Shown in pieces: positions 12,337-55,074 of a stretch of 64,000 nucleotides of DNA. Position 1 is the stretch's first letter; the number at the start of each line of letters is the position of its first letter. The translations under genes and the position numbers were made by a program. Source of the stretch: a virus; the IMG/VR virus record IMGVR_UViG_3300031616_000001, positions 54,180 through 118,179 of that record; one strand, written 5' to 3'. A model generated the notes under the pieces. It saw nothing but the letters and a program-made list of their open reading frames with translations, did not search any database and had not been told where the DNA came from.

Positions 12337-12639
12337 ATGTATCTGCAGCAACTCAAGAATCTAAACGTCGAGCGCATCGACGTCGACGAGGCGATCGCGA
12401 TGGCTACCTGGGCGCGTGCGTCGGCGAACGGCTACGACCACTACGGTGTGACGCCGCCGGCCTGGTTGACCGCCGCGATCGAGACGCTCGACGCCGAGAT
12501 CAACCGCCGCCGCCGCGACATCCTGGTCGCACGCAAGCGTGAGATCGAGGCGAACCTGACGCAGCTCCGCACCCGCGAGGAACGGCGTCACGACGCCGAG
12601 GCCGAGCTGGCGCGTCTCAACGATGCCCTCGGCAAGTAA
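12337..12639 (+). CDS. hypothetical coiled-coil protein
   Basis: RBS GAGG; C-terminal coiled coil. Confidence 0.65.
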   Translation: MYLQQLKNLNVERIDVDEAIAMATWARASANGYDHYGVTPPAWLTAAIETLDAEINRRRRDILVARKREIEANLTQLRTREERRHDAEAELARLNDALGK

Positions 12640-12778
12640 GCCAAAACAGGCCACCCCGAAAGAGGTGGCCTGTTTGCATTGCGCCTATCGCTGGCTGCCG
12701 CGCATCACCGGCCGGCAAGCCAAGTGCCCGCAGTGCCAGTCGCGCAAGTGGGACCAGAAGCCGAAGGCAAAACGATGA
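12623..12778 (+). CDS. small zinc-ribbon protein (not in the ORF track)
   Basis: CLHCAYRWLPR...KCPQCQSRKW; its stop overlaps the RlaP ATG. Confidence 0.65.
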   Translation: MPSASKPKQATPKEVACLHCAYRWLPRITGRQAKCPQCQSRKWDQKPKAKR

Positions 12779-13530
12779 AGACCACCATCCTCGAAGCCGT
12801 TGTTGGCTCGACGGTTCACGGTACCGCGGTGAACGATGGTCTCGAGGACCTTGACCTCATGGCCGTCGTCGTCGAAGACCAGAAGACCTTTGCAGGCTTC
12901 AATGCAGCCGACACGTGGGTCAGCCGAACCAAGCCGGTTGGCGTGCGCTCCGAGGCTGGCGATGTGGATCATGTGGCGTATGGTCTGCGCAAGTACCTGA
13001 GCCTGGCACTCAAGGGAAACCCGTCGATCCTGCTTGCGCTCTTCGTGCCCGGAGAGCACGTGCGGGAGATCACACTGTACGGCCACGCCTTGCGCGCGCT
13101 GGCGCCACAGATCGTCAGCAAACAGGCCTACATGCCATTCCGAGGCTACATGCGTCAGCAGCATGAGCGCCTTCTGGGACTTCGCGGCCAGCGCAACATC
13201 ACCCGTCCCGAGCTGGTCGACAAGTACGGCTATGACACGAAGTATGCCGGCCACGTTGTGCGGCTCGGGCTGCAAGGCGAAGAGTTGCTGCAGACTGGCA
13301 GGATCTCGCTACCCATGCGCGACGCCGATCGCCAGCTCGTGCTCAAGGTGCGAACTGGCGGCTTCTCGCTTGCCGAGGCATCGACGCAGATCATCGACGC
13401 TGAGCGGCGGCTGGATGCTGCCTATGCGGCGTCGACATTGCCAGATCGGCCGAACTCGGAATTGGTCGAGCGCTGGATGCTGAAAACCTACCTGCAGCAC
13501 TGGTCGGAAGAATGGAGGATAGGCGGATGA
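12775..13530 (+). CDS. DNA polymerase beta-superfamily nucleotidyltransferase, RlaP/YcgL family
   Basis: GSTVHG...EDLD, YGLRKYLSLALKGNPSIL, YDTKYAGHVVRL. Confidence 0.85.
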   Translation: MKTTILEAVVGSTVHGTAVNDGLEDLDLMAVVVEDQKTFAGFNAADTWVSRTKPVGVRSEAGDVDHVAYGLRKYLSLALKGNPSILLALFVPGEHVREITLYGHALRALAPQIVSKQAYMPFRGYMRQQHERLLGLRGQRNITRPELVDKYGYDTKYAGHVVRLGLQGEELLQTGRISLPMRDADRQLVLKVRTGGFSLAEASTQIIDAERRLDAAYAASTLPDRPNSELVERWMLKTYLQHWSEEWRIGG

Positions 13531-13814
13531 CCTTCGAGCGCCACCGCTTCATGACCAACGCCGACGACTTCAGGCCCGTCAAGTTTCCGCCTCCCGGTCC
13601 CTACTGGTGCAGCGGCTACCGCTTCGACGACGACGAGCCACGGAACAATCACGCTATCGTCATCGCGATCCTGCCGAAGGACGAGCCGCTCGCCACATGG
13701 TGGCCTGACGCCGAAGACGTCGAGACCACCGAAATCGACGTCATCACATTCACCGAACGCTTCCCGCGGCCCACATGGTGGCAGCCGCAACTCACCGTGG
13801 TGCCTCCGACATGA
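13527..13814 (+). CDS. hypothetical protein
   Basis: ATGA-coupled; FPPPGPYWCSG, RFPRPTWW. Confidence 0.6.
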   Translation: MTFERHRFMTNADDFRPVKFPPPGPYWCSGYRFDDDEPRNNHAIVIAILPKDEPLATWWPDAEDVETTEIDVITFTERFPRPTWWQPQLTVVPPT

Positions 13815-14146
13815 GCGTCAGCCTTGCCTGCATCTTCGCGAAGTGGGAGCACTTCCCAGGTCGCGTCCTCGGCTACGAACGTCTCAGCCTGACCTATCAG
13901 GACTACGACCTGTTCGATCGGATCAAGGCAGAAGCCACGCCGATCGACGGCATGCTCATGTCGTACGAGGACGAAGGCATCAAGGATCGATCTGACGACC
14001 CCTACGGGACGCCGTTGACCTTCTTGACTGCCCACCGCTTGGCCAAGCATTTCGATGGCATTGGCATGGAAGCGTGGGATATGGCTGTGCTGGCGTTCGT
14101 GAAGGCGCTGCCGCCATCGACGCGCGTTGTGCTGTGGTGGTCATGA
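13811..14146 (+). CDS. hypothetical protein
   Basis: ATGA-coupled. Confidence 0.6.
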   Translation: MSVSLACIFAKWEHFPGRVLGYERLSLTYQDYDLFDRIKAEATPIDGMLMSYEDEGIKDRSDDPYGTPLTFLTAHRLAKHFDGIGMEAWDMAVLAFVKALPPSTRVVLWWS

Positions 14147-14331
14147 ACTCACGCGACGTCAGCAACCAGGATCTGGTCGGCGTGATGCGCGCGCAGGCGT
14201 GGGAGCGCGCCAAGGGCGAACTGCGGTCGATCCTCGCCGCCTATTTCGATGATCGCAATCGCTTCGACGCCATGGACAAACTGGTCTCGAAATTCGTGAT
14301 AGAGGTCGAAGAAAACGGCCTGGCCGAATGA
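14143..14331 (+). CDS. hypothetical protein
   Basis: ATGA-coupled. Confidence 0.55.
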   Translation: MNSRDVSNQDLVGVMRAQAWERAKGELRSILAAYFDDRNRFDAMDKLVSKFVIEVEENGLAE

Positions 14332-14343
14332 AGGTCTGACCCC

Positions 14344-14757
14344 ATGGATCATTTTGGAATCGGCGCTGCCGTCCGCGCCATGATGCAGATCTACCAGCAC
14401 TCCGCCAGGAGGAGCGGCCGCACGACGTCGCTCGTCGAGAGCGTGAAGGATGGTGATCGGATCGTCTTCTCGGATCGACGCGAGGCCGTGCGCGTGAGGC
14501 GACTATGCGCTGAACGCAAGGCAAGCGTGGAATGCATCGTCATCGATCCACATCATCCGGAGAATCTGTTCGGAAATCACGGGACCTCCGAAGGCCGGAC
14601 GATCTTCGATCACACATGGGTCGAGCAGTTCTACCTGGCGGCGATCGAGCGAGCGCAGGCGGACATCGACCACCTCGAGCGTGAGACATCCGGCTATGGC
14701 GCGGCGCATCGCGAGACGCGCCGGTGTGCTGAAGAACTAATGCGATGGAGACCGTGA
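14344..14757 (+). CDS. hypothetical protein with degenerate P-loop-like segment
   Basis: ARRSGRTT. Confidence 0.55.
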   Translation: MDHFGIGAAVRAMMQIYQHSARRSGRTTSLVESVKDGDRIVFSDRREAVRVRRLCAERKASVECIVIDPHHPENLFGNHGTSEGRTIFDHTWVEQFYLAAIERAQADIDHLERETSGYGAAHRETRRCAEELMRWRP

Positions 14758-14759
14758 TC

Positions 14760-15308
14760 ATGGGACTTAACGTACACGCATACCGGCAGATCAGGAAGCT
14801 GGACGTGCTCTTCGATGCCGACGGGCAGCCCGTGGATCCACTGACACGAGCGCCGGTGGAAGGCGACTACTTCCGAGCGACTGTGAACAGCGACTTCCCG
14901 AGTCAGGCTGAAGGCGTCGAACATCGCGGCGTCTATGCCTTTGCCGACGAAGACCACTTTTGGTCTGGAGGCTATGGGCACTACGGGAGGTGGCGGGAGA
15001 CGCTCGCGAAGTTAGCCGGCTACACGGCGGTTCTACATGAGCGCGTTCCGGGCTTCAAGCCGTCGGAAGTGATGAGCCATACGGTCGGGGCATTTGAGGT
15101 CGAAGACGGCCCGTTCCATGAACTCGTGTGCTTCAGCGACTGTGAAGGCTGTATCGGCACCGTCGTCTCCGCCGAGCTGGCGCGTGACTTCGCCGAATGG
15201 GATGACCGCGCGAAGGCAACGGGCGATGCGTGGTTCTACGAGAAGTACGCCGAGTGGCGGCGCTGCTTTGAGATGGCCGCTGACGGCGGAGCCGTTACGT
15301 TTGGCTGA
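14760..15308 (+). CDS. conserved phage hypothetical protein
   Basis: MGLNVHAY..., FHELVCFSDCEGCIG, AADGGAVTF. Confidence 0.65.
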   Translation: MGLNVHAYRQIRKLDVLFDADGQPVDPLTRAPVEGDYFRATVNSDFPSQAEGVEHRGVYAFADEDHFWSGGYGHYGRWRETLAKLAGYTAVLHERVPGFKPSEVMSHTVGAFEVEDGPFHELVCFSDCEGCIGTVVSAELARDFAEWDDRAKATGDAWFYEKYAEWRRCFEMAADGGAVTFG

Positions 15309-15346
15309 GCGTTGGCGGCGCCGCCGCAAGGCATAAGGAAGGAACG

Positions 15347-15664
15347 ATGAGCTTGTTCCAGTGTGGTCACTGCGGGTGCTGCGAGAATACGGCTTTGGCC
15401 TCCCAAGGCTGCGACGGCTACGCGGAGAGCTTCTTTGACTGGACAGACTTCGAGGACCGCCGTGGGAAGCAGCTTTGCAGCGTATGCGCGCCCACGAAGT
15501 ACAGCGACGGCACGCCCACCGAGTTCGGGTTTTGGCACGGCCGCTTTGATCGCGTGTTTCTGCCGATGGGAGTGTTCCGCACGGCCAAAAACGGCAACCT
15601 GGAGCATACCGAGACAGGTGATCAAGAATTTCGGAAGTACGCCTTGACTGCAGTTAAGGGTTAG
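15347..15664 (+). CDS. hypothetical Cys-rich protein
   Basis: RBS AAGGA; MSLFQCGHCGCCENTA...LCSVC...WHGRF. Confidence 0.65.
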   Translation: MSLFQCGHCGCCENTALASQGCDGYAESFFDWTDFEDRRGKQLCSVCAPTKYSDGTPTEFGFWHGRFDRVFLPMGVFRTAKNGNLEHTETGDQEFRKYALTAVKG

Positions 15665-15706
15665 CCGGACCCTCCAAACGCCGGCGCATGTTGGAGTTAA
15701 AACCCA

Positions 15707-15853
15707 ATGGAAACCGAAGTCACCAAGGCAATCAAAGATTTGGCCGAGAAGGCTGCGGCCGCGCAAGCGCACGAAGCCATGCACTATTCGCAGGCGGCGC
15801 TGAACTTGGCTCATGTTCTGCAGGTCAAGAAAGAAATCGATATGACGAAGTAG
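15707..15853 (+). CDS. small hypothetical protein (not in the ORF track)
   Basis: GGAG RBS; METEVTKAIKDLAEKAA...SQAALNLAH. Confidence 0.55.
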   Translation: METEVTKAIKDLAEKAAAAQAHEAMHYSQAALNLAHVLQVKKEIDMTK

Positions 15854-15903
15854 GCGTAGCAGCCGGCACGCAGGTACTGGTGCCGGCGAGAAAGGACACA
15901 GAC

Positions 15904-16176
15904 ATGACGATGCATATCCGAGTCGACGCATGGGTCGACGAGCACTCCGGCAAGTACGACAACGGCCGCATCGCATGCGGTCTCGAAACGCTCCCGGAAG
16001 GCGACACGGCGGTATTCGAAGCCGACTCCTATGCCTATCACGTCGCCGACTGCCAGCAATGCAACCCCGGTGGTCCCGAGCCCTATGGCACACCGATCTC
16101 GCAACTGAGTGGCCGACCCGGGCACCCTGGGTTCGAGGCGTTCCGCGAGATCGCCGCAAGCTGGGGCCATGAATGA
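15904..16176 (+). CDS. hypothetical protein
   Basis: RBS AAGGA; CQQC. Confidence 0.55.
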   Translation: MTMHIRVDAWVDEHSGKYDNGRIACGLETLPEGDTAVFEADSYAYHVADCQQCNPGGPEPYGTPISQLSGRPGHPGFEAFREIAASWGHE

Positions 16177-16370
16177 GCTACTGGCAAACATTGCTGCTGA
16201 TGTACCCGATATGCGTTGTCGGATACCGGACTGGGTCGTGGACCTACTGGCGTCTTAGGTCCGGAAAGAACAGCGCATCGGCGCCAACCTGGGGCGAGGC
16301 GTTCAGTGCAAGCTGGTACAGCGCAACAGGTGGCGCGATCGCCATGCTTTTGTATCGGCCAGACGCCTAA
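16173..16370 (+). CDS. cassette-associated small membrane protein
   Basis: Stop TAA lies inside GCCTAAC of the attC site. Confidence 0.55.
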   Translation: MSYWQTLLLMYPICVVGYRTGSWTYWRLRSGKNSASAPTWGEAFSASWYSATGGAIAMLLYRPDA

Positions 16371-16422
16371 CGTTTTAGTTCAGCGGCTGCCGAAGGCAGT
16401 CCGCTGGAACGAAGGGTTAGGC
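16365..16422 (-). mobile_element. integron attC site 1
   Basis: Minus strand GCCTAAC-CCTTC-GTTCCAGC...GCTGAAC-TAAAAC-GTTAGGC with canonical unpaired bases. Confidence 0.85.
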
Positions 16423-16451
16423 GCCTGGTTGAGAAGCGAAAGGACCGACGA

Positions 16452-16841
16452 ATGCTGAACATGCTGAAAGACCCAGCGAAGCGCGCCGAGTGGGTGTACG
16501 GCCAGCAGATGGCCACGTGCCCAGCCTGCGGCAGCTACAACATGAAGCCGCAAATGCCGATCAAGCTGGACGTGGCCGGCGACGACACAGTGCCACAACT
16601 TGTGGGCAAATGGGCGCGTGCCACGAAGGCCGGCGCCACGCCGCTGGAAGGCCCGGCCTACTACTGCTGCTGGGACTGCTCCCACAAGGGGCCGGCAGTG
16701 GACTGCACCGGGCGCACCAGCGAGGATGCCCGCCAGGACCGCGCACTGAACGCGGAGATGAAGCGACTGTGGAACGCGCAGACGCCTAACGTGAAGGTAA
16801 GCGGCGACCCGAAGGGGCGTCCGCCTTCACCGTTGGGTTAG
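16452..16841 (+). CDS. cassette Zn-ribbon protein reading through attC
   Basis: RBS AAGGA; CPAC...CWDC. Confidence 0.6.
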   Translation: MLNMLKDPAKRAEWVYGQQMATCPACGSYNMKPQMPIKLDVAGDDTVPQLVGKWARATKAGATPLEGPAYYCCWDCSHKGPAVDCTGRTSEDARQDRALNAEMKRLWNAQTPNVKVSGDPKGRPPSPLG

Positions 16842-16843
16842 GC
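16784..16843 (-). mobile_element. integron attC site 2
   Basis: Minus strand GCCTAAC-CCAAC-GGTGAAGGC...GCTTACC-TTCAC-GTTAGGC. Confidence 0.75.
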
Positions 16844-16866
16844 GCGTGGAACGAAGGCAGAGGACT

Positions 16867-17061
16867 ATGAGCAAGCGAAAACTCAAGAAGGCGATTTTGG
16901 CGGAGGCTCTGGCTGTGTACCGCACGACAGACTTCGGCTGCCGCAGCTTCACGGTAGACGTGACAAACGGGCAATTGGTCTATGTGCATCTGCCGCGTGA
17001 GTACCGGCCGATTGAGACGCTGATGCACCTATGCGCTCAATTGAATGGCGACAGACCGTGA
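16867..17061 (+). CDS. cassette hypothetical protein
   Basis: GAGGA RBS just after the attC. Confidence 0.5.
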   Translation: MSKRKLKKAILAEALAVYRTTDFGCRSFTVDVTNGQLVYVHLPREYRPIETLMHLCAQLNGDRP

Positions 17062-17188
17062 AGCGTCAAGACTGCTGCACTAGCTCAGAAAGCCGCGAGC
17101 CGAAGTACAAGGCGGACGACAGGCAGAGCAGCCGGTTTCTAACCGGAAGGCCCGAGCAGACAGGCTCGCTCGGTGCAGCAGTGTTGAC

Positions 17189-17245
17189 GCCTAACGTTTG
17201 AGATAAGCGGACTGTACTCAGGTCCGCTTGATCGAAGGGTTAGGC
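17189..17245 (-). mobile_element. integron attC site 3
   Basis: Minus strand GCCTAAC-CCTTC-GATCAAGC...GCTTATC-TCAAAC-GTTAGGC. Confidence 0.85.
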
Positions 17246-17269
17246 GTGGTGAACAGAGAGGAAAGAACG

Positions 17270-17530
17270 ATGAAGTGGGAAGACATCAGCTCGCACAGCC
17301 AAGGCGACAAAGAGCGAGTGCCGAACGCATGGCAATTGGATTGCGCAGGAATTCGCTTGCGAGTGCATCGGCACATCTACCATGAGCCAACGGATTGGCT
17401 GCTCAGCGGGGCGCCATGGTTCGATAGGCACAAGCTTGCTTCTCTTGGCGCTGAGGATGCGATGCGTGAGGCGGAGCAATCTTTGCTTAAAAAGATCGCG
17501 GCCGCAAACGCCGCATTGCATGACGCCTAA
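17270..17530 (+). CDS. cassette hypothetical protein
   Basis: GAGG RBS; stop lies in GCCTAAC. Confidence 0.6.
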   Translation: MKWEDISSHSQGDKERVPNAWQLDCAGIRLRVHRHIYHEPTDWLLSGAPWFDRHKLASLGAEDAMREAEQSLLKKIAAANAALHDA

Positions 17531-17545
17531 CGTTGTTATAGACAA
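17525..17545 (-). mobile_element. lone core site, attI-like or secondary insertion site
   Basis: Minus strand CTATAACAAC-GTTAGGC, with no inverse core nearby. Confidence 0.5.
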
Positions 17546-17710
17546 CACGTGATGTGTTCGCACGAGTTTTGCGTCACCCAAGAATCGAGCACTGGCGCGG
17601 CGCTGCGGGGTGGCGTGATGCATAACTTTGGCGCCACTCACCGCGAGACACGCCGGCGAGCCGAAGAGCTGGTGCGCTGGCGACCTTGATTCACCGGGCC
17701 GCGCAGTATC

Positions 17711-18148
17711 TCAGCGCTTCGCCGCGATGATCTTGTCGACCTCGGGCGCTGCGGTGACCTGGTCGACGAGCTCGACAGTGGCGAGGCCGGCCCACGCCGG
17801 TCCGCCCATCGACGTCCGCACGTAGATCTTCTCGCCGCTGCGCACGACGACGTCGAGCGTGGCGACACCCGAGTACATCGTGCTCGGCGCCGACACCACG
17901 TGCGGGCCCGGCGCGGCCTTGGCGGCGAACCACTCACCTGGTACTGACTTGCCGACGCGCAGGCCGTCGACGAGCAGCTCCGGTCGCTGGCCGTGGCCGA
18001 ACAACGAGTACATCGGCCGGTAGAAGACGATGGTGCCGGCGCGCGGATCCTGGTCGGCTGGGTTCGGTGGTAGCGGCGCCATCGCGCAGCCGGCGGCGAT
18101 CAGCAATGGCAGCAGCGCGAGTGCGCGCAACACTTTGGTTCTGTTCAT
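17711..18148 (-). CDS. DUF2846-like lipoprotein
   Basis: Signal peptide with lipobox IAAGC; IVFYRP, GPHVV, GEKIYVR. Confidence 0.75.
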   Translation of the reverse strand: MNRTKVLRALALLPLLIAAGCAMAPLPPNPADQDPRAGTIVFYRPMYSLFGHGQRPELLVDGLRVGKSVPGEWFAAKAAPGPHVVSAPSTMYSGVATLDVVVRSGEKIYVRTSMGGPAWAGLATVELVDQVTAAPEVDKIIAAKR

Positions 18149-18618
18149 GACGTGGGGCCTCCAACTCGTAGGATGCCTCGGACGTCGCGCCGCGGCAACT
18201 GCCGACATGCACGCCACCGTGAAAAACGGTACATTCCGGCCCCATGGAACGACGAGTGAAACCTCAATCCTGCCCTTGAACAAGGTGCGGCGAGCGGTCT
18301 GATCCCCGCGGGTACAAAGTTTCGCCGCCACTCGCAACGATTCCGCGCGGTGCTTGCGCATGGCATCGCTCCAACGGCCTCGAGGTGCAAACGCCTCGAG
18401 GCCGTTGGTCATTCTGAGCTTGCCAACGCATCGACACCTGGTGGAAAATCGAGCCTTCCCGGGATAAACCTAGCCCCCTAGGCGCCGCGCACCCTCGACG
18501 GCATTCATGTCCTGGCTGTAAAGGCAGCAGAGGCCTCATACACCCAAGCGCGCAGCGCAACGGGTGTCTGGCGACGGCGGGGCTTCGGCCCCGCTCAAGC
18601 CTTGCACTTGAAGCGCGA

Positions 18619-19110
18619 CTACTCATCCGAGGCACAGGAACTTCCCCCGCCGGGGGACACCTCGCCATCGGGTCGCGGTTGCCACGGGATCTCGCCGAAC
18701 TGCTTGCACTTGTCGCACGGCCGACGGAAAAACGGCGTCTCGTTGCCCTGCGGATACCAACGCGCTCGGGGCCGCATGTTGCGCGCGTTGTTCACCGGCT
18801 TGTGCCCGCACAGCGAGACACCGGTGCCGGCGTCGACCAGGTGCACCAGGTGGCCGCCGGCGGCGCGCGCCAGGTATGTCTCGCCGCGGCCGGTGCGGGC
18901 TTGCTCGATGGACTCGTCGGCCGCGGCTTCGCGCGCCTCGCGATCGCGGATCGATTGGCGGCCGTCACGGATCATCGCGAACAGCCGCAGCTCGCGCTTG
19001 CCGTCTTCGGTGTCAGCGAAGCAGTCGTAGTGCGCCCGGGCTCGCGTATGCCACGGCTGGCCAGGCTCAATCGGCAGGTTGCAAAGCGGGCAGATATCGA
19101 CGTCATTCAT
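18619..19110 (-). CDS. hypothetical Zn-binding protein
   Basis: CPLC..HYDC; LCG; CDKC. Confidence 0.55.
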   Translation of the reverse strand: MNDVDICPLCNLPIEPGQPWHTRARAHYDCFADTEDGKRELRLFAMIRDGRQSIRDREAREAAADESIEQARTGRGETYLARAAGGHLVHLVDAGTGVSLCGHKPVNNARNMRPRARWYPQGNETPFFRRPCDKCKQFGEIPWQPRPDGEVSPGGGSSCASDE

Positions 19111-33825: not shown

Positions 33826-34311
33826 ATGGCGAATCCTCGAAAGCCCACTGACCTGAAGTTGGTCGCGGGCACGACGCGGAAGGATCGATCCAATCCCACC
33901 GAGCCGAAACCAGACAAGGTAGCGCCGGTATGCCCGGCGCATATGAGCGACGAGTGCAAGGTGTACTGGGGTCGCGTCTGCGTCGAGTTGGAAATGATGG
34001 GCGTGCTCACGCGAGCCGACGGTATCGCGCTCGAGCAACTGGTCTACCTGTACCAGGAGAGCGTCACCCTCAAGGGCATCCTGGCCAAGGAAGGTCGCAC
34101 GTACCAGGTCAAGGCGACGAACGGCGAAGTCGTGTGGAAGAAGCACCCGGCGGCCGACATGCTCAAGGACATCCTCGTGGAGTTGCGTCACAGCCGCTCC
34201 GAGTTCGGCTTGAGCCCCGCATCCCGCACCAAGGTGCACACGGTCCCGACCGGTGGCAACAAGAACCCCGCGGAAGCCCCGAAGCAGCCCGCCTCGGCCT
34301 ACCTTACCTGA
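33826..34311 (+). CDS. terS: terminase small subunit, P27 family
   Basis: RKPTDLKLVAG, KKHPA, EFGLSPASRTK. Confidence 0.9.
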   Translation: MANPRKPTDLKLVAGTTRKDRSNPTEPKPDKVAPVCPAHMSDECKVYWGRVCVELEMMGVLTRADGIALEQLVYLYQESVTLKGILAKEGRTYQVKATNGEVVWKKHPAADMLKDILVELRHSRSEFGLSPASRTKVHTVPTGGNKNPAEAPKQPASAYLT

Positions 34312-36055
34312 CCCGGTCACGGCGTACGCGCTCTCCGTCGTCAACGGCGAGACGCTCGCCGGGCCGAATGTCAGAGGAGCCTGCCGGCGCCATCTCGCGG
34401 ATCTGAAGGAGGGCAAGGCGCGCGGGCTCCGGTTCGACCTGGTTTTGGTCAACCGCGCGATCGGCTTCTTCCGCGATGTCTTGCGCCTGAACGGCGGCGA
34501 ACACGAGGGCCGGCCGTTCCACCTCGAACCGTGGCAAGCCTTCATCGTCGGCAGCCTCTTTGGCTGGCTTGGATCCGACGGCTTCCGCAGATTCCGCACC
34601 GCCTACATCGAGATCGGCAAGGGCAACGGCAAGTCGCCGCTGTGCGCCGGCATCGGCCTGTACTGCCTGTGCGCGGACAACGAGCCGCGAGCCGAGGTGT
34701 ACGCGGCGGCGACGAAGAAGGACCAGGCAATGATCCTGTTCCGTGACGCCGTCGCGATGGTGAACCAGTCGCCCGAGCTTCACGCGAAGATCGCGCAGAC
34801 CGGCGGCCAGAACCCATGGAATCTGAGCTACGGCGGCAGCTTCTTTCGTGCCATCAGCTCCGACGACGGTCAGTCCGGGCCGCGGCCGCATTGCTCGCTG
34901 ATCGACGAGGTGCACGAGCACACCAACTCCGGCGTCGTTGACATGCTCGGCTTGGGCCAGAAGGGGCGCCGGCAGCCACTGACGGTAGAGATCACGAACA
35001 GCGGGTTCGACCGCACCTCGATCTGCTTCCAGCATCACGAGTACAGCGGCCGCGTCACCTCCGGCATGGAGGAAAACGACGAGTGGTTCGCGTACGTCTG
35101 CGGGCTGGACGAGGGCGACGATCCGATGAAGGACGAGTCGTGCTGGCCGAAGGCCAACCCGAACCTCGGCGTCTCGGTCACGCTCAAGTACCTGCGCAAG
35201 GAGGTGCGCGAAGCCATCGGCATGCCGGCCAAGGCATCGATCGTCAAGCGCCTCAACTTCTGCGTTTGGGTCGACGCCGAGAATCCGTGGATCGAGGGTC
35301 CGCTGTGGATGGCGTGCGAGGACAAGTTCGACGCGATCTCAGAGTTGCAGCAATGCAGCGAGGTCGTCGGTGCTCTCGACCTTTCGGGCACGCGAGATCT
35401 GACGGCATTGGCCTTGGCAGGTCTCGTCGAGACCGTCATCACCTGCGTGGTCGAGTTCTGGACGCCGAAGGACACGCTGATCGAGCGCGCGCGCACCGAT
35501 CGCGTTCCCTACGACTCGTGGGTCGAGGACGGCTACATGACGGCGACGCCAGGTCGCAACGTCGACTATGGTTTCGTCGCCCAGCGCCTCAGCGAGCTCC
35601 AGGTCATCTTGCCGTCGTTCCGCAGGCTGTGCTTCGACCCGTACCGGATCAAGTACCTCGAGAAGGAGCTCGATGAGCTCGGCATCGAGATTGAGCTGAT
35701 CCCGCACGGGCAGGGCTACTACAAGGCGCACGACAAGCCGTCGGAAGATCAGAAGAAGGCCAAGGCCGGCGACAAGCCGCGGCCCAACATGTGGATGCCG
35801 CGGTCGATCGAGCTGCTCGAGAAGGCCATCCCGGAGAAGCGCTTCCGCGTTCAGCGCAACCCGTGCCTGACCTGGAATAGCGCGTCGGCCGTGCTGGAGG
35901 CCGACTCGAAAAACAATCGCATCTTCTCGAAGCGCAAGTCGCGAGGCCGCATCGACGGACTCGTGGCAGCCGCGATGGCCACGGGACTTCTTCACGAAGA
36001 CGCGCCGCCACCGAAGAAGCGCGAGTTCCAGCTGTTCACGCTGGGCGGGCGATAG
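34253..36055 (+). CDS. terL: terminase large subunit
   Basis: LEPWQ, GKGNGKS, IDEVHEH, LDLS..DLTA, RIDGLVA. Confidence 0.95.
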   Translation: MATRTPRKPRSSPPRPTLPDPVTAYALSVVNGETLAGPNVRGACRRHLADLKEGKARGLRFDLVLVNRAIGFFRDVLRLNGGEHEGRPFHLEPWQAFIVGSLFGWLGSDGFRRFRTAYIEIGKGNGKSPLCAGIGLYCLCADNEPRAEVYAAATKKDQAMILFRDAVAMVNQSPELHAKIAQTGGQNPWNLSYGGSFFRAISSDDGQSGPRPHCSLIDEVHEHTNSGVVDMLGLGQKGRRQPLTVEITNSGFDRTSICFQHHEYSGRVTSGMEENDEWFAYVCGLDEGDDPMKDESCWPKANPNLGVSVTLKYLRKEVREAIGMPAKASIVKRLNFCVWVDAENPWIEGPLWMACEDKFDAISELQQCSEVVGALDLSGTRDLTALALAGLVETVITCVVEFWTPKDTLIERARTDRVPYDSWVEDGYMTATPGRNVDYGFVAQRLSELQVILPSFRRLCFDPYRIKYLEKELDELGIEIELIPHGQGYYKAHDKPSEDQKKAKAGDKPRPNMWMPRSIELLEKAIPEKRFRVQRNPCLTWNSASAVLEADSKNNRIFSKRKSRGRIDGLVAAAMATGLLHEDAPPPKKREFQLFTLGGR

Positions 36056-36135: not shown

Positions 36136-38154
36136 ATGCCCCAAAGCACCCGTTCCAACCCGACGCGGGCGTACTCGACGTTCGACATCAAGTCGATCAG
36201 CGAGGACAAGCGAATCATCACCGGCATCGCGTCGACGCCGTCGGTCGATCGCATGGACGACATCGTCGAGCCGATGGGCGCGCAGTTCAAGCTGCCGCTG
36301 CCCCTGCTCTGGCAGCACGACTCGCATTGCCCGGTCGGTCAGGTCATCGCCGCCAAGGCCACGAAGGCCGGCATCGAAGTGACTTGCCAGTTTGCGCAAG
36401 TCGACGAACCGCCGAGCCTGAAGGACGACCTCGACCGCGCGTGGGCGCAGGTCAAGGCAAAGCTGGTCCGCGGCTTCTCCATCGGCTTCAGTGCCCTCGA
36501 GTCGATCGACATCGAAGGCACCTGGGGCCGTCGCTTCACGAAGTGGGACTGGCTCGAGCTGAGCGCCGTGACGATTCCGGCCAACGCCGACTGTTCCATT
36601 CAAACCATCAAGTCCGTCGACACGGAAACGCGGGCCGCGCTTGGCCTCACGCGAAAGGGTGTCGTTCGTCTTGCAGACCCTCCCGGCGCTTCGGGAAAGA
36701 CCAGTGCACAGCCCGCCTCAAGCGGGCTTTTTGTTGCCTCAACCACTCCCGAAGGAAAGCTCACCATGAAGACCCTCGCTGAACGTATTGCCGAGTTCAA
36801 GGCCCGCAAGGCCGAGAACCTCAAGGCCCTCCAAGTCATCGTCGACAAGACCCTCGAGTCCGGCGAAACGCTGGATGCCGAGACCAAGCAGAAGCAGGCC
36901 GATCTCCGCGCGGAGAACACGACCATCGACGAGCACGTCACGATGCTCGAGCAGCACGAGAAGGACATGCTGGCCACCGCCACGGAAGTGACGCCGGCGA
37001 ACACCACGCCGCGCGGCACCAGCGTCGACCGCCCGGGCGCCGTCGTCGTGGCCGTCAAGTCGAACCTGCCGAAGGGCATCGGCTTCGCGCGCATCGCGCA
37101 GGCCATCCTGCACTCCAAGGGCAACATCGGCCAAGCCGCGGAAATCGCCAAGCGCTGGTCCGACGCGCCGGAGATCTCGCGCGTGCTGCACGCCATGTCG
37201 AGCGCCGGCTCCACCAACCTGAAGGCTGCCGTTGCCGTCGGCGACAGCAACACCTCGGGTTGGGCGAGCCAACTCGTCTACTACAACGACCTGGCGAGCG
37301 AGTTCTACGGCCTGCTGTACCCGAAGACCATCATCGGTCGCATCCCCGGCCTGCGTCGCATCCCGTTCAACGTCCGCATCGGTGGTACCTCGTCGGGCTC
37401 GAGCTCGGCGTGGGTCGGCGAGAACAACCCCATCCCGGCCAGCGCGCTGGCGTTCACCTCGGTGACGCTGGGACACGCGAAGGCCGCCAGCCTGGTGGTG
37501 TTCACGCGTGAACTCGCGACGATGTCGAATCCGCAGGCCGAAATGGTCGTGCGCGACGACATGCTGTCGACGATGACGAAGTTCGCCGACGAGCAGTTCA
37601 TCAACCCCGCGGTGGCGGCCAGCGCGAACGTCAGCCCGGCGTCCATCACCAACGGTGCGACGGCGGTCGCCTCTGCCGGCAACTCGGTGGCGAACATCTA
37701 CACCGACGTGTCGACCATCAAGAAGCTGTTCACCGCGGCCAACCTGGACATGGACGACCTGGTCTGGGTGATGCGTCCGGACGTTGCGCTGGACCTGCAG
37801 ATGAAGCGCACGTCGCAGGACCTGCCGATCTTCCCGGACATCACGATGGACGGTGGTCGCTGGTTCGGTCTGCCGGTGGTGACGTCGAACTCGGTACCGA
37901 CCTCGGTGTCGGGCGGCTCGATCATCGCGCTGGTCAAGGCCAGCGAGGTGTACTTCGCCGATGACGGCGGCATGACCATGGACTACACGCAAGAGGCGTC
38001 GGTCCAGATGCTGACCAACCCGGCGACTGGCGCGCAGTCGCTGGTGTCGCTGTTCCAGAACGATCTCGTTGGCCTGCGCGCCATCCGCGAGATGAACTGG
38101 CAGCGTCGCCGTGCGGCGGGCGTCGCGTACATCGACGGCGTTTCGTACGCCTGA
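36136..38154 (+). CDS. HK97-family prohead protease fused to major capsid protein (internal start 36766)
   Basis: LLWQHD, GFSIGF, ELSAVTIPAN protease; capsid region AWVGE, SLFQNDLVGLRA. Confidence 0.92.
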   Translation: MPQSTRSNPTRAYSTFDIKSISEDKRIITGIASTPSVDRMDDIVEPMGAQFKLPLPLLWQHDSHCPVGQVIAAKATKAGIEVTCQFAQVDEPPSLKDDLDRAWAQVKAKLVRGFSIGFSALESIDIEGTWGRRFTKWDWLELSAVTIPANADCSIQTIKSVDTETRAALGLTRKGVVRLADPPGASGKTSAQPASSGLFVASTTPEGKLTMKTLAERIAEFKARKAENLKALQVIVDKTLESGETLDAETKQKQADLRAENTTIDEHVTMLEQHEKDMLATATEVTPANTTPRGTSVDRPGAVVVAVKSNLPKGIGFARIAQAILHSKGNIGQAAEIAKRWSDAPEISRVLHAMSSAGSTNLKAAVAVGDSNTSGWASQLVYYNDLASEFYGLLYPKTIIGRIPGLRRIPFNVRIGGTSSGSSSAWVGENNPIPASALAFTSVTLGHAKAASLVVFTRELATMSNPQAEMVVRDDMLSTMTKFADEQFINPAVAASANVSPASITNGATAVASAGNSVANIYTDVSTIKKLFTAANLDMDDLVWVMRPDVALDLQMKRTSQDLPIFPDITMDGGRWFGLPVVTSNSVPTSVSGGSIIALVKASEVYFADDGGMTMDYTQEASVQMLTNPATGAQSLVSLFQNDLVGLRAIREMNWQRRRAAGVAYIDGVSYA

Positions 38155-49870: not shown

Positions 49871-51985
49871 ATGACGAGCAAAGTCTCAGAATTTGCTGAC
49901 GCGCTCTTCGTGGCCGTCAAGGGCTATTGCTCGTCGGAGTTCAAGCGCCTGTTCGAGCCGGCGATCGCCCCGCTGAAGGATCAGATCAGCGCCATCCCGG
50001 CCGGCCGCGACGGCAAAGACGCGGATCTCGAGCTCGTACGCACGGCTGCCGCCGATGCCGCGCGCCAGGCGGTCGCCGAACTGCCGCCGGCCAAGGACGG
50101 TGTAGATGGTCGCAGCGCCGACCCAGAAGAGGTTTCCACTCTCGTGCAGGAGACAGTGGCGAAAGCCATCGCGCTGATCCCCGTGCCGAAAGACGGCCGC
50201 GACGCTTCGATCGAAGACGTCACGTCAGTTGTCGACGCAGCGCTGTCCAAGGCAGTCGAAAGTCTGCCGCTCCCGAAGGACGGCCGCGACGCTGAGCCCG
50301 TCGCCCCCGAGGTGGTGCGCGCGATGGTTGCGGAAGCCATCGCCAAACTGCCGGCGCCAAAGGATGGGGTCGACGGCAAGAGTGCTGATCCCGTTGAAGT
50401 TGAAGCCGCGGTGCGCAAGGCCATCGATGAGTTGCCGCCGGCGAAGGACGGCGCCGACGGCAAGGACGCCGACGCCGAGGCCATCACGCAGGCCGTGCTC
50501 GCCAAGATCGCAGCGTTTCTTGACGGCATCCCGGCGCCGGTCAACGGCAAAGACGGCCGTGACGGCGTCGACGGCGCCAGCGTCGATTCCGCGGTAGTCG
50601 CACGGCTCGTCTCCGAAGAGGTGAAGCGCGCCGTCGACGCGCTACCGGCGCCGAAGGACGGCGTCGACGGCAAGGATGGCGTGGCCGGTGCCGACGGGCC
50701 GTCGACGGAAGAGATCGCAGGTCTGGTGCGGTCGGCAGTCGCGACGATCCCGCCGCCGAAGGACGGTGTCGACGGCAAGGACGCGAGTCCCGAGCAGATC
50801 TCGGAAGCCGTGGCCAAGGCCGTGGCGCTGATCCCGGTTCCGAAGGACGGCCGCGATGGCGTCGACGGGCAGTCGGTCGACCGCCAGGTCGTGCGCGGCA
50901 TGGTCGACGATGAGGTCGCGAAGTCGGTCGCCGCGCTACCGCCGGCAAAGGACGGCGTCGACGGTAAGAGCATCGATCCCGTCGAGCTCGAAACGCTGGT
51001 CGTGGCGAAGGTGAAGGCGGTTGTCGCTGATCTGCCGAAGCCTGAAAACGGCGTCGATGGGCGCGATGCCGACCCTGAAGTGCTTCGACAGATGGTGTCC
51101 GACGCCGTGGCCGAGATCCCGAAGCCGGCGGATGGCCGCGACGGGAAGGATGGCCTGGACGGCAAGTCCGTCGATCGCGATGAAGTAGTCGAACTCGTGC
51201 GCGCGGCCACGGCGGGCGTGCCTGAGCTGGTCGAGTCGGTTGTCGAGACGGCGGTCGCGAAGATCCCGGCTGCGAAGGATGGCCGCGACGGCGTTGACGG
51301 CAAGAGCGTCGACGAGCAAACCATCGCCAGGCTGCTTGGCGACCTCGTGGCCAAGGCCATGGAGGCCATGCCGAAACCGCGTGACGGCCGCGATGCCGAT
51401 CCCGAGTCGATCCACAAAGCCATCGAGGCCGCGATCAACTCGATCCCTCTGCCAGTTGACGGCCGCGACGGTCGTGATGGCAAGGTCGGCGATCCCGGTC
51501 GCGACGCGCTGCAGATCGAGGTCCTGCCGGCCGTCGATGTCACGCGCAGCTATCCGCGCGCCACGTATGCGAATTACCGCGGCGGCGTGGTGCGCTCGGT
51601 GCGCACGACCGACCCCGTCACCGACTCGATCGAGGCCGCCGGTTGGGTCGTGCACGTCGACGGCGAGGCCGACTTCGAGATCGAGCAGGTCAATGAGCGA
51701 TCGTTCGCTTTCAAGCGCACGTTCACCAGTGGCCGCGTGGTTGAGAAACGCGTGAGCATCCCCGCACAGATCTACCGCGGCGTCTACGACGAGAACCGCG
51801 TTGGTGGCTACGAAAAGGGCGACACCGCGACATGGGCAGGGTCGCTCTGGCATTGCAATGAACCCACGGGCGAGAAGCCCGGTGTCGGCGGCAACTGGAC
51901 GCTTGCCGCCAAGCGCGGCCGCGATGGTGCCGACGGCGTCGCGCCGCGCGCCGGCCCGCCGCCGACGGTCAAGTTGCCGAAGTGA
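49871..51985 (+). CDS. PKDG(V/R)DG repeat protein (portal/neck-associated)
   Basis: More than a dozen helix plus PKDGxDGK repeats; C-terminal GRDALQIEVLP..SYPR, WAGSLWHC, WTLAAKRGRDG. Confidence 0.75.
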   Translation: MTSKVSEFADALFVAVKGYCSSEFKRLFEPAIAPLKDQISAIPAGRDGKDADLELVRTAAADAARQAVAELPPAKDGVDGRSADPEEVSTLVQETVAKAIALIPVPKDGRDASIEDVTSVVDAALSKAVESLPLPKDGRDAEPVAPEVVRAMVAEAIAKLPAPKDGVDGKSADPVEVEAAVRKAIDELPPAKDGADGKDADAEAITQAVLAKIAAFLDGIPAPVNGKDGRDGVDGASVDSAVVARLVSEEVKRAVDALPAPKDGVDGKDGVAGADGPSTEEIAGLVRSAVATIPPPKDGVDGKDASPEQISEAVAKAVALIPVPKDGRDGVDGQSVDRQVVRGMVDDEVAKSVAALPPAKDGVDGKSIDPVELETLVVAKVKAVVADLPKPENGVDGRDADPEVLRQMVSDAVAEIPKPADGRDGKDGLDGKSVDRDEVVELVRAATAGVPELVESVVETAVAKIPAAKDGRDGVDGKSVDEQTIARLLGDLVAKAMEAMPKPRDGRDADPESIHKAIEAAINSIPLPVDGRDGRDGKVGDPGRDALQIEVLPAVDVTRSYPRATYANYRGGVVRSVRTTDPVTDSIEAAGWVVHVDGEADFEIEQVNERSFAFKRTFTSGRVVEKRVSIPAQIYRGVYDENRVGGYEKGDTATWAGSLWHCNEPTGEKPGVGGNWTLAAKRGRDGADGVAPRAGPPPTVKLPK

Positions 51986-54154: not shown

Positions 54155-55074
54155 AGGACCTGAAGGGTTGGTTCACCGGATTGGGCCGCGATGGCGACCG
54201 TTCGCTGGAGCAGCAGATGACGGGGCTCGAGGCCTTGGTCGCCGAGGTCCCCGGCAAGACCGTGCTCGATGCCGGCTGCGCCGAGGGCCTCATCGCCCTC
54301 GAGCTCGCCGCCGTCGGCGCCAAGGCGTGCATCGGTCTGGAGATCGTCGGCAAGTTCGTGGCCATCGGCGAGCGACTCGCCGGCGAGCGCGAGTTGCCAT
54401 GCGAGTTCATCGTCGCCAACCTGAACCAGTACGACCTGAGCGACAAGCCGCAGGTAGACATCGTGCTGATGCTGGCCATCCTGCACAAGCTGCGCGACCC
54501 GTCGGCCGTCTGCGCCGCGCTCGCCGCGCTGGCGCGCGACCTCTGCGTGATCCGCCTGCCGCCTTCGGGCATGCGCATCCTGGACCTTCGATCCGGCATG
54601 CGGCCGCACCACATCGACCAGGTGATGACCGACGCCGGATTCGCTCTGGAGTCCGTGGTCGCCGGTCCGTACGACGAATGGCTCGGCTACTTCCGCCGCG
54701 TTCAGGCCGACAAGCCGGTCGAGCTCGAATCGGAACCCGTCGAGACGATCGCATCGACGTCCATGACGAATGTCGTCATCGGTGAGACGAACGTCGAGGT
54801 TTCCGACACGAAAGCGCCATCCCATGCAACGGAAGGCGAAGTCCATGCAACAAGCGAGGCCGGCGATGCGTCGAACGCACCTGCCGATGCATCCGGAACC
54901 TCATCGGTCGAAGATGCTCAGGCCGTCGCCGAAGGCGGCGCTGCCGAGATCGTTGACGCGGCCAAGCCGGACGACAAGCTCGAGAATGTGGCGGTGATGG
55001 CCACGGATTCCGCCGACGCAACTGGAGCGCGGCGCCGCCGCAATCGCGGCGGATCGAAGGGCTCCGGGGAGTAG
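54133..55074 (+). CDS. class I SAM methyltransferase with acidic tail
   Basis: GKTVLDAGCAEG, LAILHKL. Confidence 0.8.
   Translation: MAEAAKVKDLKGWFTGLGRDGDRSLEQQMTGLEALVAEVPGKTVLDAGCAEGLIALELAAVGAKACIGLEIVGKFVAIGERLAGERELPCEFIVANLNQYDLSDKPQVDIVLMLAILHKLRDPSAVCAALAALARDLCVIRLPPSGMRILDLRSGMRPHHIDQVMTDAGFALESVVAGPYDEWLGYFRRVQADKPVELESEPVETIASTSMTNVVIGETNVEVSDTKAPSHATEGEVHATSEAGDASNAPADASGTSSVEDAQAVAEGGAAEIVDAAKPDDKLENVAVMATDSADATGARRRRNRGGSKGSGE

Follow-up and report, generated by a model that had tools for sequence, protein, structure and literature searches.

Integrons are viewed as bacterial systems, in which the strand selectivity of recombination places promoterless genes correctly behind a Pc promoter. 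Integrons whose integrase gene (intI) is co-directional with the cassettes constitute the Treponema type.

Integrase-less clusters of attC sites in phages have already been published by Qi et al. (2023, Front Microbiol, PMC9892861). The accessible part of that article reports 17 integrase-less integron cassette arrays (CALINs), and the integron integrase IntI1 recombined five of the six phage attC sites tested, which makes the action of an integron integrase (IntI) on phage sites plausible.

The window analyzed here is a stretch of 64,000 nucleotides, positions 54,180 to 118,179 of IMG/VR record IMGVR_UViG_3300031616_000001, and coordinates below refer to it. A large terminase and a capsid-protease fusion are encoded in the window and the record carries direct terminal repeats, which identifies it as a phage; its genome has 118,179 bp. 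We consider it likely that the stretch 16365-17531 is a CALIN, located in a plus-strand accessory operon of this temperate 118-kb phage, with the polarity of its genes reversed.

Anatomy and strand of the attC sites

Sites were searched with the pattern GCCTAAC-N(30-60)-GTTAGGC, which has three matches in the window compared with 0.00 in shuffles; elsewhere in the 118,179-bp genome it has none. The matches are attC1 (16365..16422, 58 nt), attC2 (16784..16843, 60 nt) and attC3 (17189..17245, 57 nt), each with its bottom strand on the plus strand. Their GCCTAAC and GTTAGGC ends are inverted 7-nt R boxes of the form RYYYAAC / GTTRRRY, expected 45-130 nt apart. A CALIN consists of at least two attC sites with no integron integrase nearby; here, three sites lie within 881 nt in a genome without IntI.

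All three sites fold into imperfect hairpins, with z scores from -3.7 to -7.0 whichever strand is folded. Read on the plus strand, attC1 presents an R' box (GCCTAAC), a 7-nt spacer, an L box, a GAAG loop and an R'' box (GTTAGGC). The unpaired central spacer, of about 5-7 nt in attC sites, is 7 nt long in one arm and 6 nt long in the other. On this strand the AAC triplet is in the 5' arm and, opposite to it in the 3' arm, are a loop-proximal bulged T and a bulged G. These extrahelical bases are present on the plus strand of sites 1 and 3: in attC1 both are in the 3' arm, and in attC3 they are separated by 6 bp. Site 2 is imperfect in this respect and is the weakest of the three: its sequence has an inserted C and it lacks a clean G bulge. 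The loop, variable in attC sites and frequently GAA when the bottom strand is read, is GAAG in sites 1 and 2 and different in site 3, whose loop type is that of the viral sites ranking closest to it. According to the accessible part of Nivina et al. (2016, PMC5027507), extrahelical bases opposite the AAC triplet define the attC bottom strand, and the plus-strand bulges fit this definition, so that the minus strand corresponds to the classical top strand.

For a covariance model (CM R1), 70 bacterial bottom strands, selected by pattern, were combined with attC-aadA1; this model is distinct from that of IntegronFinder. It scored attC1, attC2 and attC3 at 71.4, 44.5 and 67.8 bits on the plus strand, and at 23.2, 15 and 23.3 bits on the minus strand, a clear strand preference of 29-48 bits. 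Both the model and the site survey described below sample a single attC sub-family, because the collection pattern came from the window's plus strand. The preliminary description of this locus had identified the three intervals as attC sites whose top strand is the minus strand. The pattern matches, the bulges and the model scores confirm the site type, and the preference of a model of bottom strands for the plus strand (71, 68 and 45 bits compared with 23, 23 and 15) agrees with the strand call.

Known sites behave consistently. In attC-aadA1 of plasmid R100 the 5' arm of the gene-sense strand contains an additional C and A, and it is the antisense strand that aligns with the window's plus strand. 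The window sites can also be aligned base by base to attC sites that adjoin true IntI genes in bacteria. In a Silanimonas genome, the pattern strand is the intI coding strand and the sites are upstream of intI, as in classical integrons. Two Acidobacteriota genomes that look like the co-directional-intI (Treponema) type fit the strand call if their intI is read as co-directional with the cassettes. In the bacterial arrays, ORF starts come after GTTAGGC on the opposite strand. The nearest relatives of attC1 are bacterial sites (the closest, L107, with a global alignment score of 50), and four of the eight nearest relatives of attC3 are viral, including the top three (L006, L229 and L152) as well as L158.

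Cassette units and the polarity of their genes

Four ORFs are associated with the array, all on the plus strand. The ATGs following the three sites are 29, 23 and 24 nt downstream of them and are preceded by RBS-like AGGA/GAGG motifs. The earlier claim that every gene is on the plus strand with an RBS just after a site is thus upheld, with the ATGs 23-29 nt on. It had also been claimed that the genes stop inside the next GCCTAAC or read through it. ORF1 (16173..16370, 65 aa) ends in GAC GCC TAA, with its stop within the R' box of attC1; ORF2 (16452..16841, 129 aa) stays open across the GCCTAAC of site 2 and ends at the TAG in GTTAGGC; and ORF4 (17270..17530, 86 aa) ends in GAC GCC TAA, with its stop in a lone GCCTAAC. 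The claim therefore stands for these three but fails for ORF3 (16867..17061, 64 aa), which stops 128 nt short of site 3.

ORF2 has cysteines of the CxxC...CxxC type, and its last 19 residues are encoded by attC2. Synonymous and non-synonymous differences in its plus-strand frame number 21/19, 17/15 and 19/7 with no stops, compared with 6/34, 5/27 and 7/19 in the open antisense frame, which favours the plus strand as the coding strand. Homologues of ORF2 amount to 165 cluster representatives at E<=0.001, and none of the 120 homologues listed (65-98% query coverage) carries a functional name. ORF4 has one match in a large protein collection. When 16 ORFs around the array were compared with Pfam and PHROGs, none of the four cassette ORFs had a match.

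With limits set by the predicted IntI cut between GCCTAA and C, three plus-strand cassettes follow from R-box spacings of 419, 405 and 336 bp. Cassette A (16371..16789) contains the interior of attC1, followed by an RBS and by ORF2 as far as ...GCCTAA. Cassette B (16790..17194) contains the attC2 interior, an RBS, ORF3 and a 127-nt non-coding tail, and cassette C (17195..17530) the attC3 interior, an RBS and ORF4. In a classical cassette the ORF is on the top strand with attC 3' of it. Since the phage genes are encoded on the attC bottom strand, each unit here reads attC, RBS, ORF and ...GCCTAA, the reverse of the bacterial order.

A long imperfect hairpin (17057..17196, plus strand) connects the end of ORF3 with the R' box of attC3, with 24-nt arms that are 88% complementary around 92 nt, and an RNA fold of -65.4 kcal/mol (z -4.6). 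It has no match in Rfam, and Rfam applied to 15500-18500 returned a single sub-threshold chance match. A promoter and terminator scan of 12500-19000 gave nothing exceeding shuffles. Directly after the array, at the end of the plus-strand operon, is a gene remnant (17626..17691, plus strand) about 80% identical to the last ~66 nt of the gene at 14344-14757. Close relatives of the phage were sought among viral contigs by means of two flanking proteins. Two contigs (L150 and L151) with phrog_11861 homologues have that gene alone in common with the window, without attC sites, and a 187-aa protein yielded no relative.

The polarity of the cassettes was surveyed in 127 unique viral sites from 76 loci and in 204 bacterial sites, by recording RBS-led ORFs of at least 40 aa starting within 70 nt of a site. 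Such ORFs were on the bottom strand only at 99 viral sites, on both strands at four, on neither at 24 and on the top strand only at none, where "viral" follows IMG/VR labels, which can be wrong. Among the bacterial sites the corresponding numbers are 10, 5, 136 and 53 (Fisher's test, p = 6e-33). Coding strands were assigned by the combination of RBS and ORF; a test of codon usage pointed in the same direction, with most flanks left uncalled, and a test of stop codons in the R boxes did not tell the strands apart in GC-rich DNA. A single site is present at 44 of the 76 viral loci, and most loci have one or two. These values show that reversed polarity is general in viral contigs, within the surveyed attC family. 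The literature searches made for this analysis did not find it in print.

Cassette recurrence, integrase and competing readings

The cassette A region (16364-16806) recurs with 82-84% identity in two viral contigs, L198:1582-2024(+) and L206:1603-2046(-). Its flanks are unrelated among the three copies, and the homology stops exactly at the next R box. Among copies, the ORF has an identity of 0.86-0.91 and the extension of the next R box one of 1.00; in the attC after the cassette it is 0.61-0.66, compared with a background of 0.54-0.61. The cassette's own upstream attC is 0.68-0.76 identical, modestly above the family background, and on its left side the shared cassette is not sharply delimited. 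Judging by these identities, in the three copies the upstream attC appears to travel with ORF2 and the downstream attC does not. A second shared cassette, found in L160 and L220, has less tidy block ends and was excluded from the support.

Just upstream of the array, a 90-aa gene (15904..16176, plus strand) lacks an attC here and overlaps the start of ORF1 with its stop codon (ATGA). Homologues with 73-79% DNA identity are present in six metagenome contigs, whose homology to the window is confined to 15892-16189. In L272 the homologue is between attC sites at 562-624 and 932-1038, forming a complete reversed cassette, and in L269 and L270 an attC directly follows it. The probable source metagenome has many further contigs with attC sites at least 90% like those of the window, and the summed contig depth at the three sites is 215, 103 and 3429, compared with ~33 elsewhere. 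A search of sequencing runs gave a single one with this DNA, which is probably its source and is available as contigs. Joints from 16423-16429 to 17181-17188, seen in these contigs at a likeness threshold of 90%, were considered as excision products and rejected, given that their sides are 25-27 nt long and off the predicted crossover. They are treated as sites of other organisms.

No integron integrase exists in the window, as had been stated, or in the whole genome, where no gene scores above 24.4 bits with TIGR02249 (cut-off 265). The gene with this score, returned by the genome-wide tyrosine recombinase search that had been advised, is an arm-type phage integrase rather than IntI; it is the only recombinase in the genome and is ~53 kb from the array. 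Hence, this is not a complete integron, in which intI adjoins the array. Among 96 distinct viral records with such sites, four carry an IntI above the cut-off (359-474 bits), and most of the other 92 are fragments. In all four, intI is located downstream of the attC sites; it occupies the bottom strand and runs in the same direction as the cassette ORFs.

At the right end of the array a lone R box, GCCTAAC (17525-17531, plus strand), is followed by ~20 nt to 17550 and has no partner arm. The segment 17525..17550 forms no hairpin (z -2.3 and -1.6) and scores 7.2 bits with the covariance model. It resembles boxes located 80-165 nt before intI in the four viral records (GCCTAAC-NTN-AATTC/A-G.C..CAC), with 15 invariant columns among the five sequences. 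This likeness is suggestive of an attI-like core, or of a truncated attC, which might mark the intI-proximal end of the array.

The mobile unit on the plus strand would then consist of the C that follows GCCTAA, the attC hairpin, an RBS leader of 23-29 nt, a small ORF and the next ...GCCTAA. Each attC would serve as the 5' leader of its own gene, with the stop codon of the preceding gene often supplied by the R' box, and arrays could therefore sit in phage operons transcribed toward attI/intI. An integron integrase would excise and insert cassettes through recombination of the folded bottom strand, provided by an SOS-induced host gene or by a co-resident phage-type integron, and the genes would be expressed by read-through of the phage operon, with no Pc promoter. 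The lone R box at 17525 may be a former attI end whose intI was lost. The array may also be undergoing erosion, since the cassette gene at 15904-16176 is now without its attC and site 2 has imperfections. The preliminary description had proposed a phage pool of inverted cassettes served by an IntI encoded elsewhere, which is supported indirectly by the recurrence of cassette A, by L272, by the count of 99 to 0, and by IntI in four of the 96 records. Whether phages keep a separate, mirror-image integron system, in which host or phage IntI circulates cassettes with a 5' attC and this array is live, shuffling small accessory genes possibly for host takeover or counter-defence, is in our judgment evenly balanced.

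Such an array could instead be a fossil, made of real attC relics that are now immobile and whose intergenic hairpins, if useful, act in RNA through stability, processing or translation spacing. The genome without IntI, the degenerate site 2, the neighbouring cassette gene already devoid of attC, and a right end where a lone R box precedes a gene remnant all speak for this, as do hairpins that are part of the operon transcript and stable as single strands. However, sites 1 and 3 retain every feature relevant to IntI, at 68-71 bits, and the probable source metagenome has many other contigs with similar attC sites at the depths given above. Moreover, cassette A is in differing viral contexts at 82-84% identity, and this limited identity implies that movement outlasted considerable divergence. 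We thus regard a fossil as unlikely.

Two further readings fare worse. The hairpins might be attC look-alikes acted upon by another enzyme, such as a different tyrosine recombinase, an HUH/IS200-like single-stranded DNA enzyme or a homing nuclease. Although the only recombinase of the genome is an arm-type phage integrase and 92 of the 96 related viral records, mostly fragments, have no IntI, that integrase is ~53 kb away, the recombinase adjoining the sites in viral records is a true IntI, and the sites align base for base with IntI-adjacent bacterial attC and with attC-aadA1, keeping R boxes, an asymmetric spacer and T/G bulges at 6-bp spacing, the features that IntI reads. This makes another enzyme very improbable. 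The last reading takes the plus strand as the top strand, with normal ORF-then-attC cassettes from a host integron. GCCTAAC...GTTAGGC is indeed the same on both strands and a site follows each ORF, but the bulges, the spacer asymmetry and the 29-48 bit differences put the bottom strand on the plus strand, and the R100 aadA1 site stands in the opposite relation to its gene. In addition, the attC downstream of ORF2, predicted here to travel with it, is unconserved among the three copies (0.61-0.66). Ordinary polarity was rejected on the bulges, the model scores, R100 aadA1 and the divergence of the downstream attC, and has next to no chance of being correct.

If the reversed architecture is consistent in phages, one and the same chemistry of recombination would support a second architecture, which has a cassette pool of its own, and phage cassettes would be more than borrowed host cassettes. 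Tools that assume an ORF 5' of attC would then mis-assign the cargo of phage cassettes. Phages would also gain a concrete way to swap small accessory genes rapidly, in step with the SOS response, by which IntI and prophages are both induced, and this interplay of phages and integrons could be tested directly by existing attC x attI assays.

Comparison with described integron systems

The sites share with classical attC, such as aadA1 of In2 on R100 and those of sedentary chromosomal integrons, imperfect hairpins of 57-60 nt, RYYYAAC/GTTRRRY boxes together with an L box, an unpaired spacer, a 6-bp interval between the bulged T and G, a variable loop, and a predicted crossover between AA and C of the bottom strand. 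The units of ~340-420 bp with one small ORF each are also like classical cassettes. Unlike these, the phage ORF is on the bottom strand and attC comes before the gene, with no stop-proximal role for its own ORF. Whereas classical integrons have a platform of Pc promoter, attI and intI, the phage array has no such platform, the lone R box being a possible attI remnant at most, and its expression must come from the phage operon, which reads toward attI/intI in the IntI-bearing relatives.

The array is similar to those of Qi et al. (PMC9892861) in being an integrase-less attC cluster within a phage genome. Those arrays are, however, bacterial-like in orientation in the accessible part of the article, which does not mention bottom-strand genes, whereas the polarity is reversed here and at 99 of the 127 viral sites. 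As with the SALINs and attG insertions of Loot et al. (bioRxiv 10.1101/2022.09.11.507474), cassettes are found outside integron platforms, and the attC-less gene at 15904-16176 fits the loss of attC by slippage proposed in that preprint, as far as its accessible part goes. Yet the attG insertion described there is unbiased in orientation with respect to transcription in E. coli, in contrast with the viral bias of 99 to 0. Furthermore, both ends of the array carry the full R' box extension (GACGCCTAA), which is not expected from simple attG insertion.

The Treponema type and the phage type have in common an intI that is co-directional with the cassette genes. In the Treponema type intI is before the array and on the top strand, whereas in the phage type it is after the array and on the bottom strand. 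Because of this position, the geometry from attC to intI is classical in the phage type, and the ORFs alone are flipped.

attC sites and their bottom strand

By comparative sequence analysis, the array in the window is a genuine array of integron-type cassettes whose genes have the reverse polarity (i.e., each ORF lies on the attC bottom strand, with the attC ahead of its gene). Its sites, their strand, the coding sense of the genes and the recurrence of a cassette with a break at R' are demonstrated at that level.

The pattern GCCTAAC-N(30-60)-GTTAGGC, joining outer boxes R' and R'', matches three times in the window against 0.00 times in shuffled sequence, and no further copies exist in the whole 118,179-bp genome. 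These sites, attC1 (16365-16422), attC2 (16784-16843) and attC3 (17189-17245), have their bottom strand on the plus strand. All three fold as imperfect hairpins (z of -3.7 to -7.0), attC2 being the weakest site, with a C inserted and the clean G bulge missing. A fourth GCCTAAC lies alone at 17525-17531, lacking a partner arm and showing no significant fold.

Given the core boxes are identical on either strand, the unpaired features decide the strand. According to passages of Nivina et al. 2016 (PMC5027507), the bottom strand, which is the one that recombines, presents the cleaved 5'-AAC-3' in R', an extrahelical G followed further in by a T in the opposite arm near L'', a 6-bp stem separating these bulges, and a loop that is frequently 5'-GAA-3'. 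The plus strand of the window presents the AAC box in the 5' arm and, in the 3' arm, a loop-adjacent bulged T with a bulged G 6 bp outward; the loop is GAAG in attC1 and attC2. In attC-aadA1 of plasmid R100, the gene-sense strand carries the extra bases (C and A) in its 5' arm, and it is the antisense strand that aligns column for column with the plus strand of the window.

A search of bacterial genomes with the plus-strand pattern returned at least 132 stretches. In a Silanimonas genome, intI is encoded on the pattern strand and the array lies upstream of it (i.e., classical geometry), and two Acidobacteriota integrons are concordant if assigned to the type whose intI and cassettes share one direction. 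In bacterial arrays found by the pattern, ORFs begin beyond GTTAGGC on the non-pattern strand. A covariance model of 70 pattern-found bacterial sites and the aadA1 bottom strand scored attC1, attC2 and attC3 at 71.4, 44.5 and 67.8 bits on the plus strand and at 23.2, 15 and 23.3 bits on the minus strand, a test that is not fully independent because its training sites were gathered by a window-derived pattern; the R100 comparison and the intI geometry are independent of that set. Bulge anatomy, R100, intI geometry, bacterial ORF starts and the covariance model thus agree that the plus strand is the attC bottom strand, as the preliminary description had called it.

Coding sense and recurrence of the cassettes

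All four small genes lie on the plus strand with AGGA/GAGG-type RBS motifs, and ORF2, ORF3 and ORF4 start 23-29 nt past the preceding site, which bears out the earlier observation of plus-strand genes with their own RBS after each site. The further claim that every gene stops inside, or reads through, the next GCCTAAC holds for ORF1 (16173-16370), which ends GAC GCC TAA inside the R' box of attC1, for ORF2 (16452-16841), which runs through attC2 to a stop in its GTTAGGC, and for ORF4 (17270-17530), which ends GAC GCC TAA in the lone R box, but not for ORF3 (16867-17061), whose stop lies 128 nt ahead of attC3. Substitutions among three homologous copies confirm the plus strand as the coding strand of ORF2: the plus frame, free of stops, shows 21/19, 17/15 and 19/7 synonymous/non-synonymous changes, and the single open antisense frame shows 6/34, 5/27 and 7/19.

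Pfam and PHROG searches assigned no family to ORF1-ORF4, and ORF4 is almost an orphan in a protein collection search. ORF2 has 165 relatives, of which none among the best 120 carries a functional name; query coverage in these 120 is 65-98%, consistent with tails that different attC sites encode.

With plus as the bottom strand, the predicted cut of IntI (integron integrase) is GCCTAA|C, delimiting plus-strand cassettes A (16371-16789, 419 bp), B (16790-17194, 405 bp) and C (17195-17530, 336 bp). Cassette A and its upstream attC share 82-84% identity with segments of two viral contigs (L198 and L206) whose flanks are unrelated. Pairwise identity among the copies is 0.68-0.76 in the cassette's own upstream attC, 0.69-0.79 in the leader, 0.86-0.91 in ORF2, 1.00 in the next R box extension (CAGACGCCTAAC) and 0.61-0.66 in the interior of the following attC, with a background of 0.54-0.61 in the unrelated flanks; the right edge of the shared block is sharper than the left. 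Judged by these alignments, the profile is the one predicted for an attC-then-ORF unit cut at R'. An ordinary ORF-then-attC unit would give the opposite profile.

In the window, no attC accompanies the gene directly upstream of the array (15904-16176). Its homologue in metagenome contig L272 forms a full reversed cassette, with an attC site on either side, and in two other contigs (L269 and L270) an attC directly follows the homologue, from which we infer that the window array was formerly longer and is now eroding. A perfect 8-bp hairpin just 5' of this gene (15862-15887, GCCGGCAC...GTGCCGGC), with a loop like that of attC3, and an R''-like AAGGGTTAGCCG where the phrog_11861 gene stops (15656-15667) may be decayed attC remnants of that longer array.

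Other structures were observed in such cassettes. The non-coding tail of cassette B forms a 140-nt imperfect hairpin (17057-17196; RNA fold z of -4.6; no match in an Rfam search) with 24-nt arms that are 88% complementary; the left arm includes, where ORF3 stops, an inverted and degenerate version of the R' box extension, and the right arm is the attC3 R' box. This hairpin could be what is left of a cassette without a gene, or else a structured RNA. In L272, the next cassette gene (ORF 978-1355) has both its RBS and its start codon in the loop of a long attC (932-1038); hence, in some reversed cassettes the gene starts inside the hairpin.

The one sequencing run found to contain this DNA (X1), a root metagenome kept as contigs, is probably where the record came from; its joints are unreliable. 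In it, summed contig depth is 215, 103 and 3429 at sites 1, 2 and 3 (jumps at 16376-16509, 16778-16911 and 17180-17313) versus about 33 elsewhere. Very many other contigs there therefore carry an attC at least 90% like these, most of all like site 3, a hint of either a large pool of these cassettes in the habitat or a host integron that uses such sites.

Polarity and integrases in viral and bacterial loci

The strand-specific attC pattern matched 112 viral stretches. An HMM derived from the bacterial alignment placed the survey sites, which were retained if unique, full-length and sufficiently flanked; a strand was scored when an ORF of 40 aa or more, preceded by an RBS and beginning with ATG or GTG, started within 70 nt past the site. 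Among 127 viral sites (76 loci), 99 scored on the bottom strand only, 4 on both, 0 on the top only and 24 on neither, versus 10, 5, 53 and 136, respectively, among 204 bacterial sites (99 loci). The strand-specific counts differ at p = 6e-33 (Fisher's test), for one attC sub-family, with heuristic coding-strand calls and fallible IMG/VR labels. This demonstrates a polarity contrast between viral and bacterial loci, and a codon-usage test of low power points in the same direction. The contexts are diverse, as the 163 flanking ORFs of the viral loci and of the window yield just 13 small similarity groups that span loci. Ten sites in bacterial genome contigs (L047, L103, L056, L043 and others) have the phage-type polarity, their only RBS-led ORF being on the bottom strand; these may be located in prophages or reflect chance calls.

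The preliminary description saw no IntI in the window, and none exists in the whole 118,179-bp genome; the rest of the genome encodes an arm-type tyrosine integrase (Arm-DNA-bind_2, SAM_3 and Phage_integrase domains), not IntI. Some viral relatives do encode one: four of 96 distinct viral records carrying sites of this kind, mostly fragments, exceed the curated IntI cut-off (359-474 bits). In these four (L264, L266, L267 and L268), intI lies downstream of the reversed cassettes, on the attC bottom strand and in the same direction as the cassette ORFs; thus, attC-to-intI geometry is classical and the ORFs alone are flipped. The match in L264 is split across two frames, possibly through a frameshift or sequencing error. 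In such records, a phage operon would run across the cassettes in the direction of attI and intI. In all four, a lone R box lies 80-165 nt ahead of intI, followed by AATTC or AATTA and then G.C..CA. The lone box of the window (GCCTAACGTTGTTATAGACAACAC) is similar, though this is no more than suggestive; loss of intI may have left this box as a residual attI core.

Phage setting and comparison with known systems

The IMG/VR virus record, of which the window covers bases 54180-118179, has direct terminal repeats and a completeness rating of 100%. Given its virion genes, i.e., a large terminase (34253-36055), a protease-capsid fusion (36136-38154) and a portal-protein family match (49871-51985), and its arm-type integrase, this is a temperate phage. 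The terminal ~66 nt of gene 14344-14757 (14694-14759) recur at ~80% identity directly after the array (17626-17691), and these repeats flank about 2.9 kb of small genes, the cassettes among them; the second copy may be a paralogue remnant truncated during rearrangement of the array's right end. Beyond it, genes lie on the minus strand, convergent with the array. The gene converging on the end of the cassette operon (17711-18148, minus strand) encodes a DUF2846 lipoprotein with a signal peptide and lipobox-like start, and looks like a moron-type accessory gene.

Under the proposed mechanism, an IntI from the host or another phage would fold the plus strand of the sites and exchange attC-ORF units, whose genes would be expressed by operon read-through.

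Phage attC clusters without an integrase are already known, while a full-text literature search found no account of phage cassettes whose genes lie on the attC bottom strand, so that reversed polarity appears to be a new feature of such sequences. Passages of Loot et al. (bioRxiv 10.1101/2022.09.11.507474) describe SALINs (single attC, no integrase) and insertion at genomic attG, with orientation bias stated there to be absent. Integrase-less attC clusters in phages, recombined by IntI1, are reported in passages of Qi et al. 2023 (PMC9892861), where the arrays are described as bacterial-like in orientation, whereas the window array is reversed.
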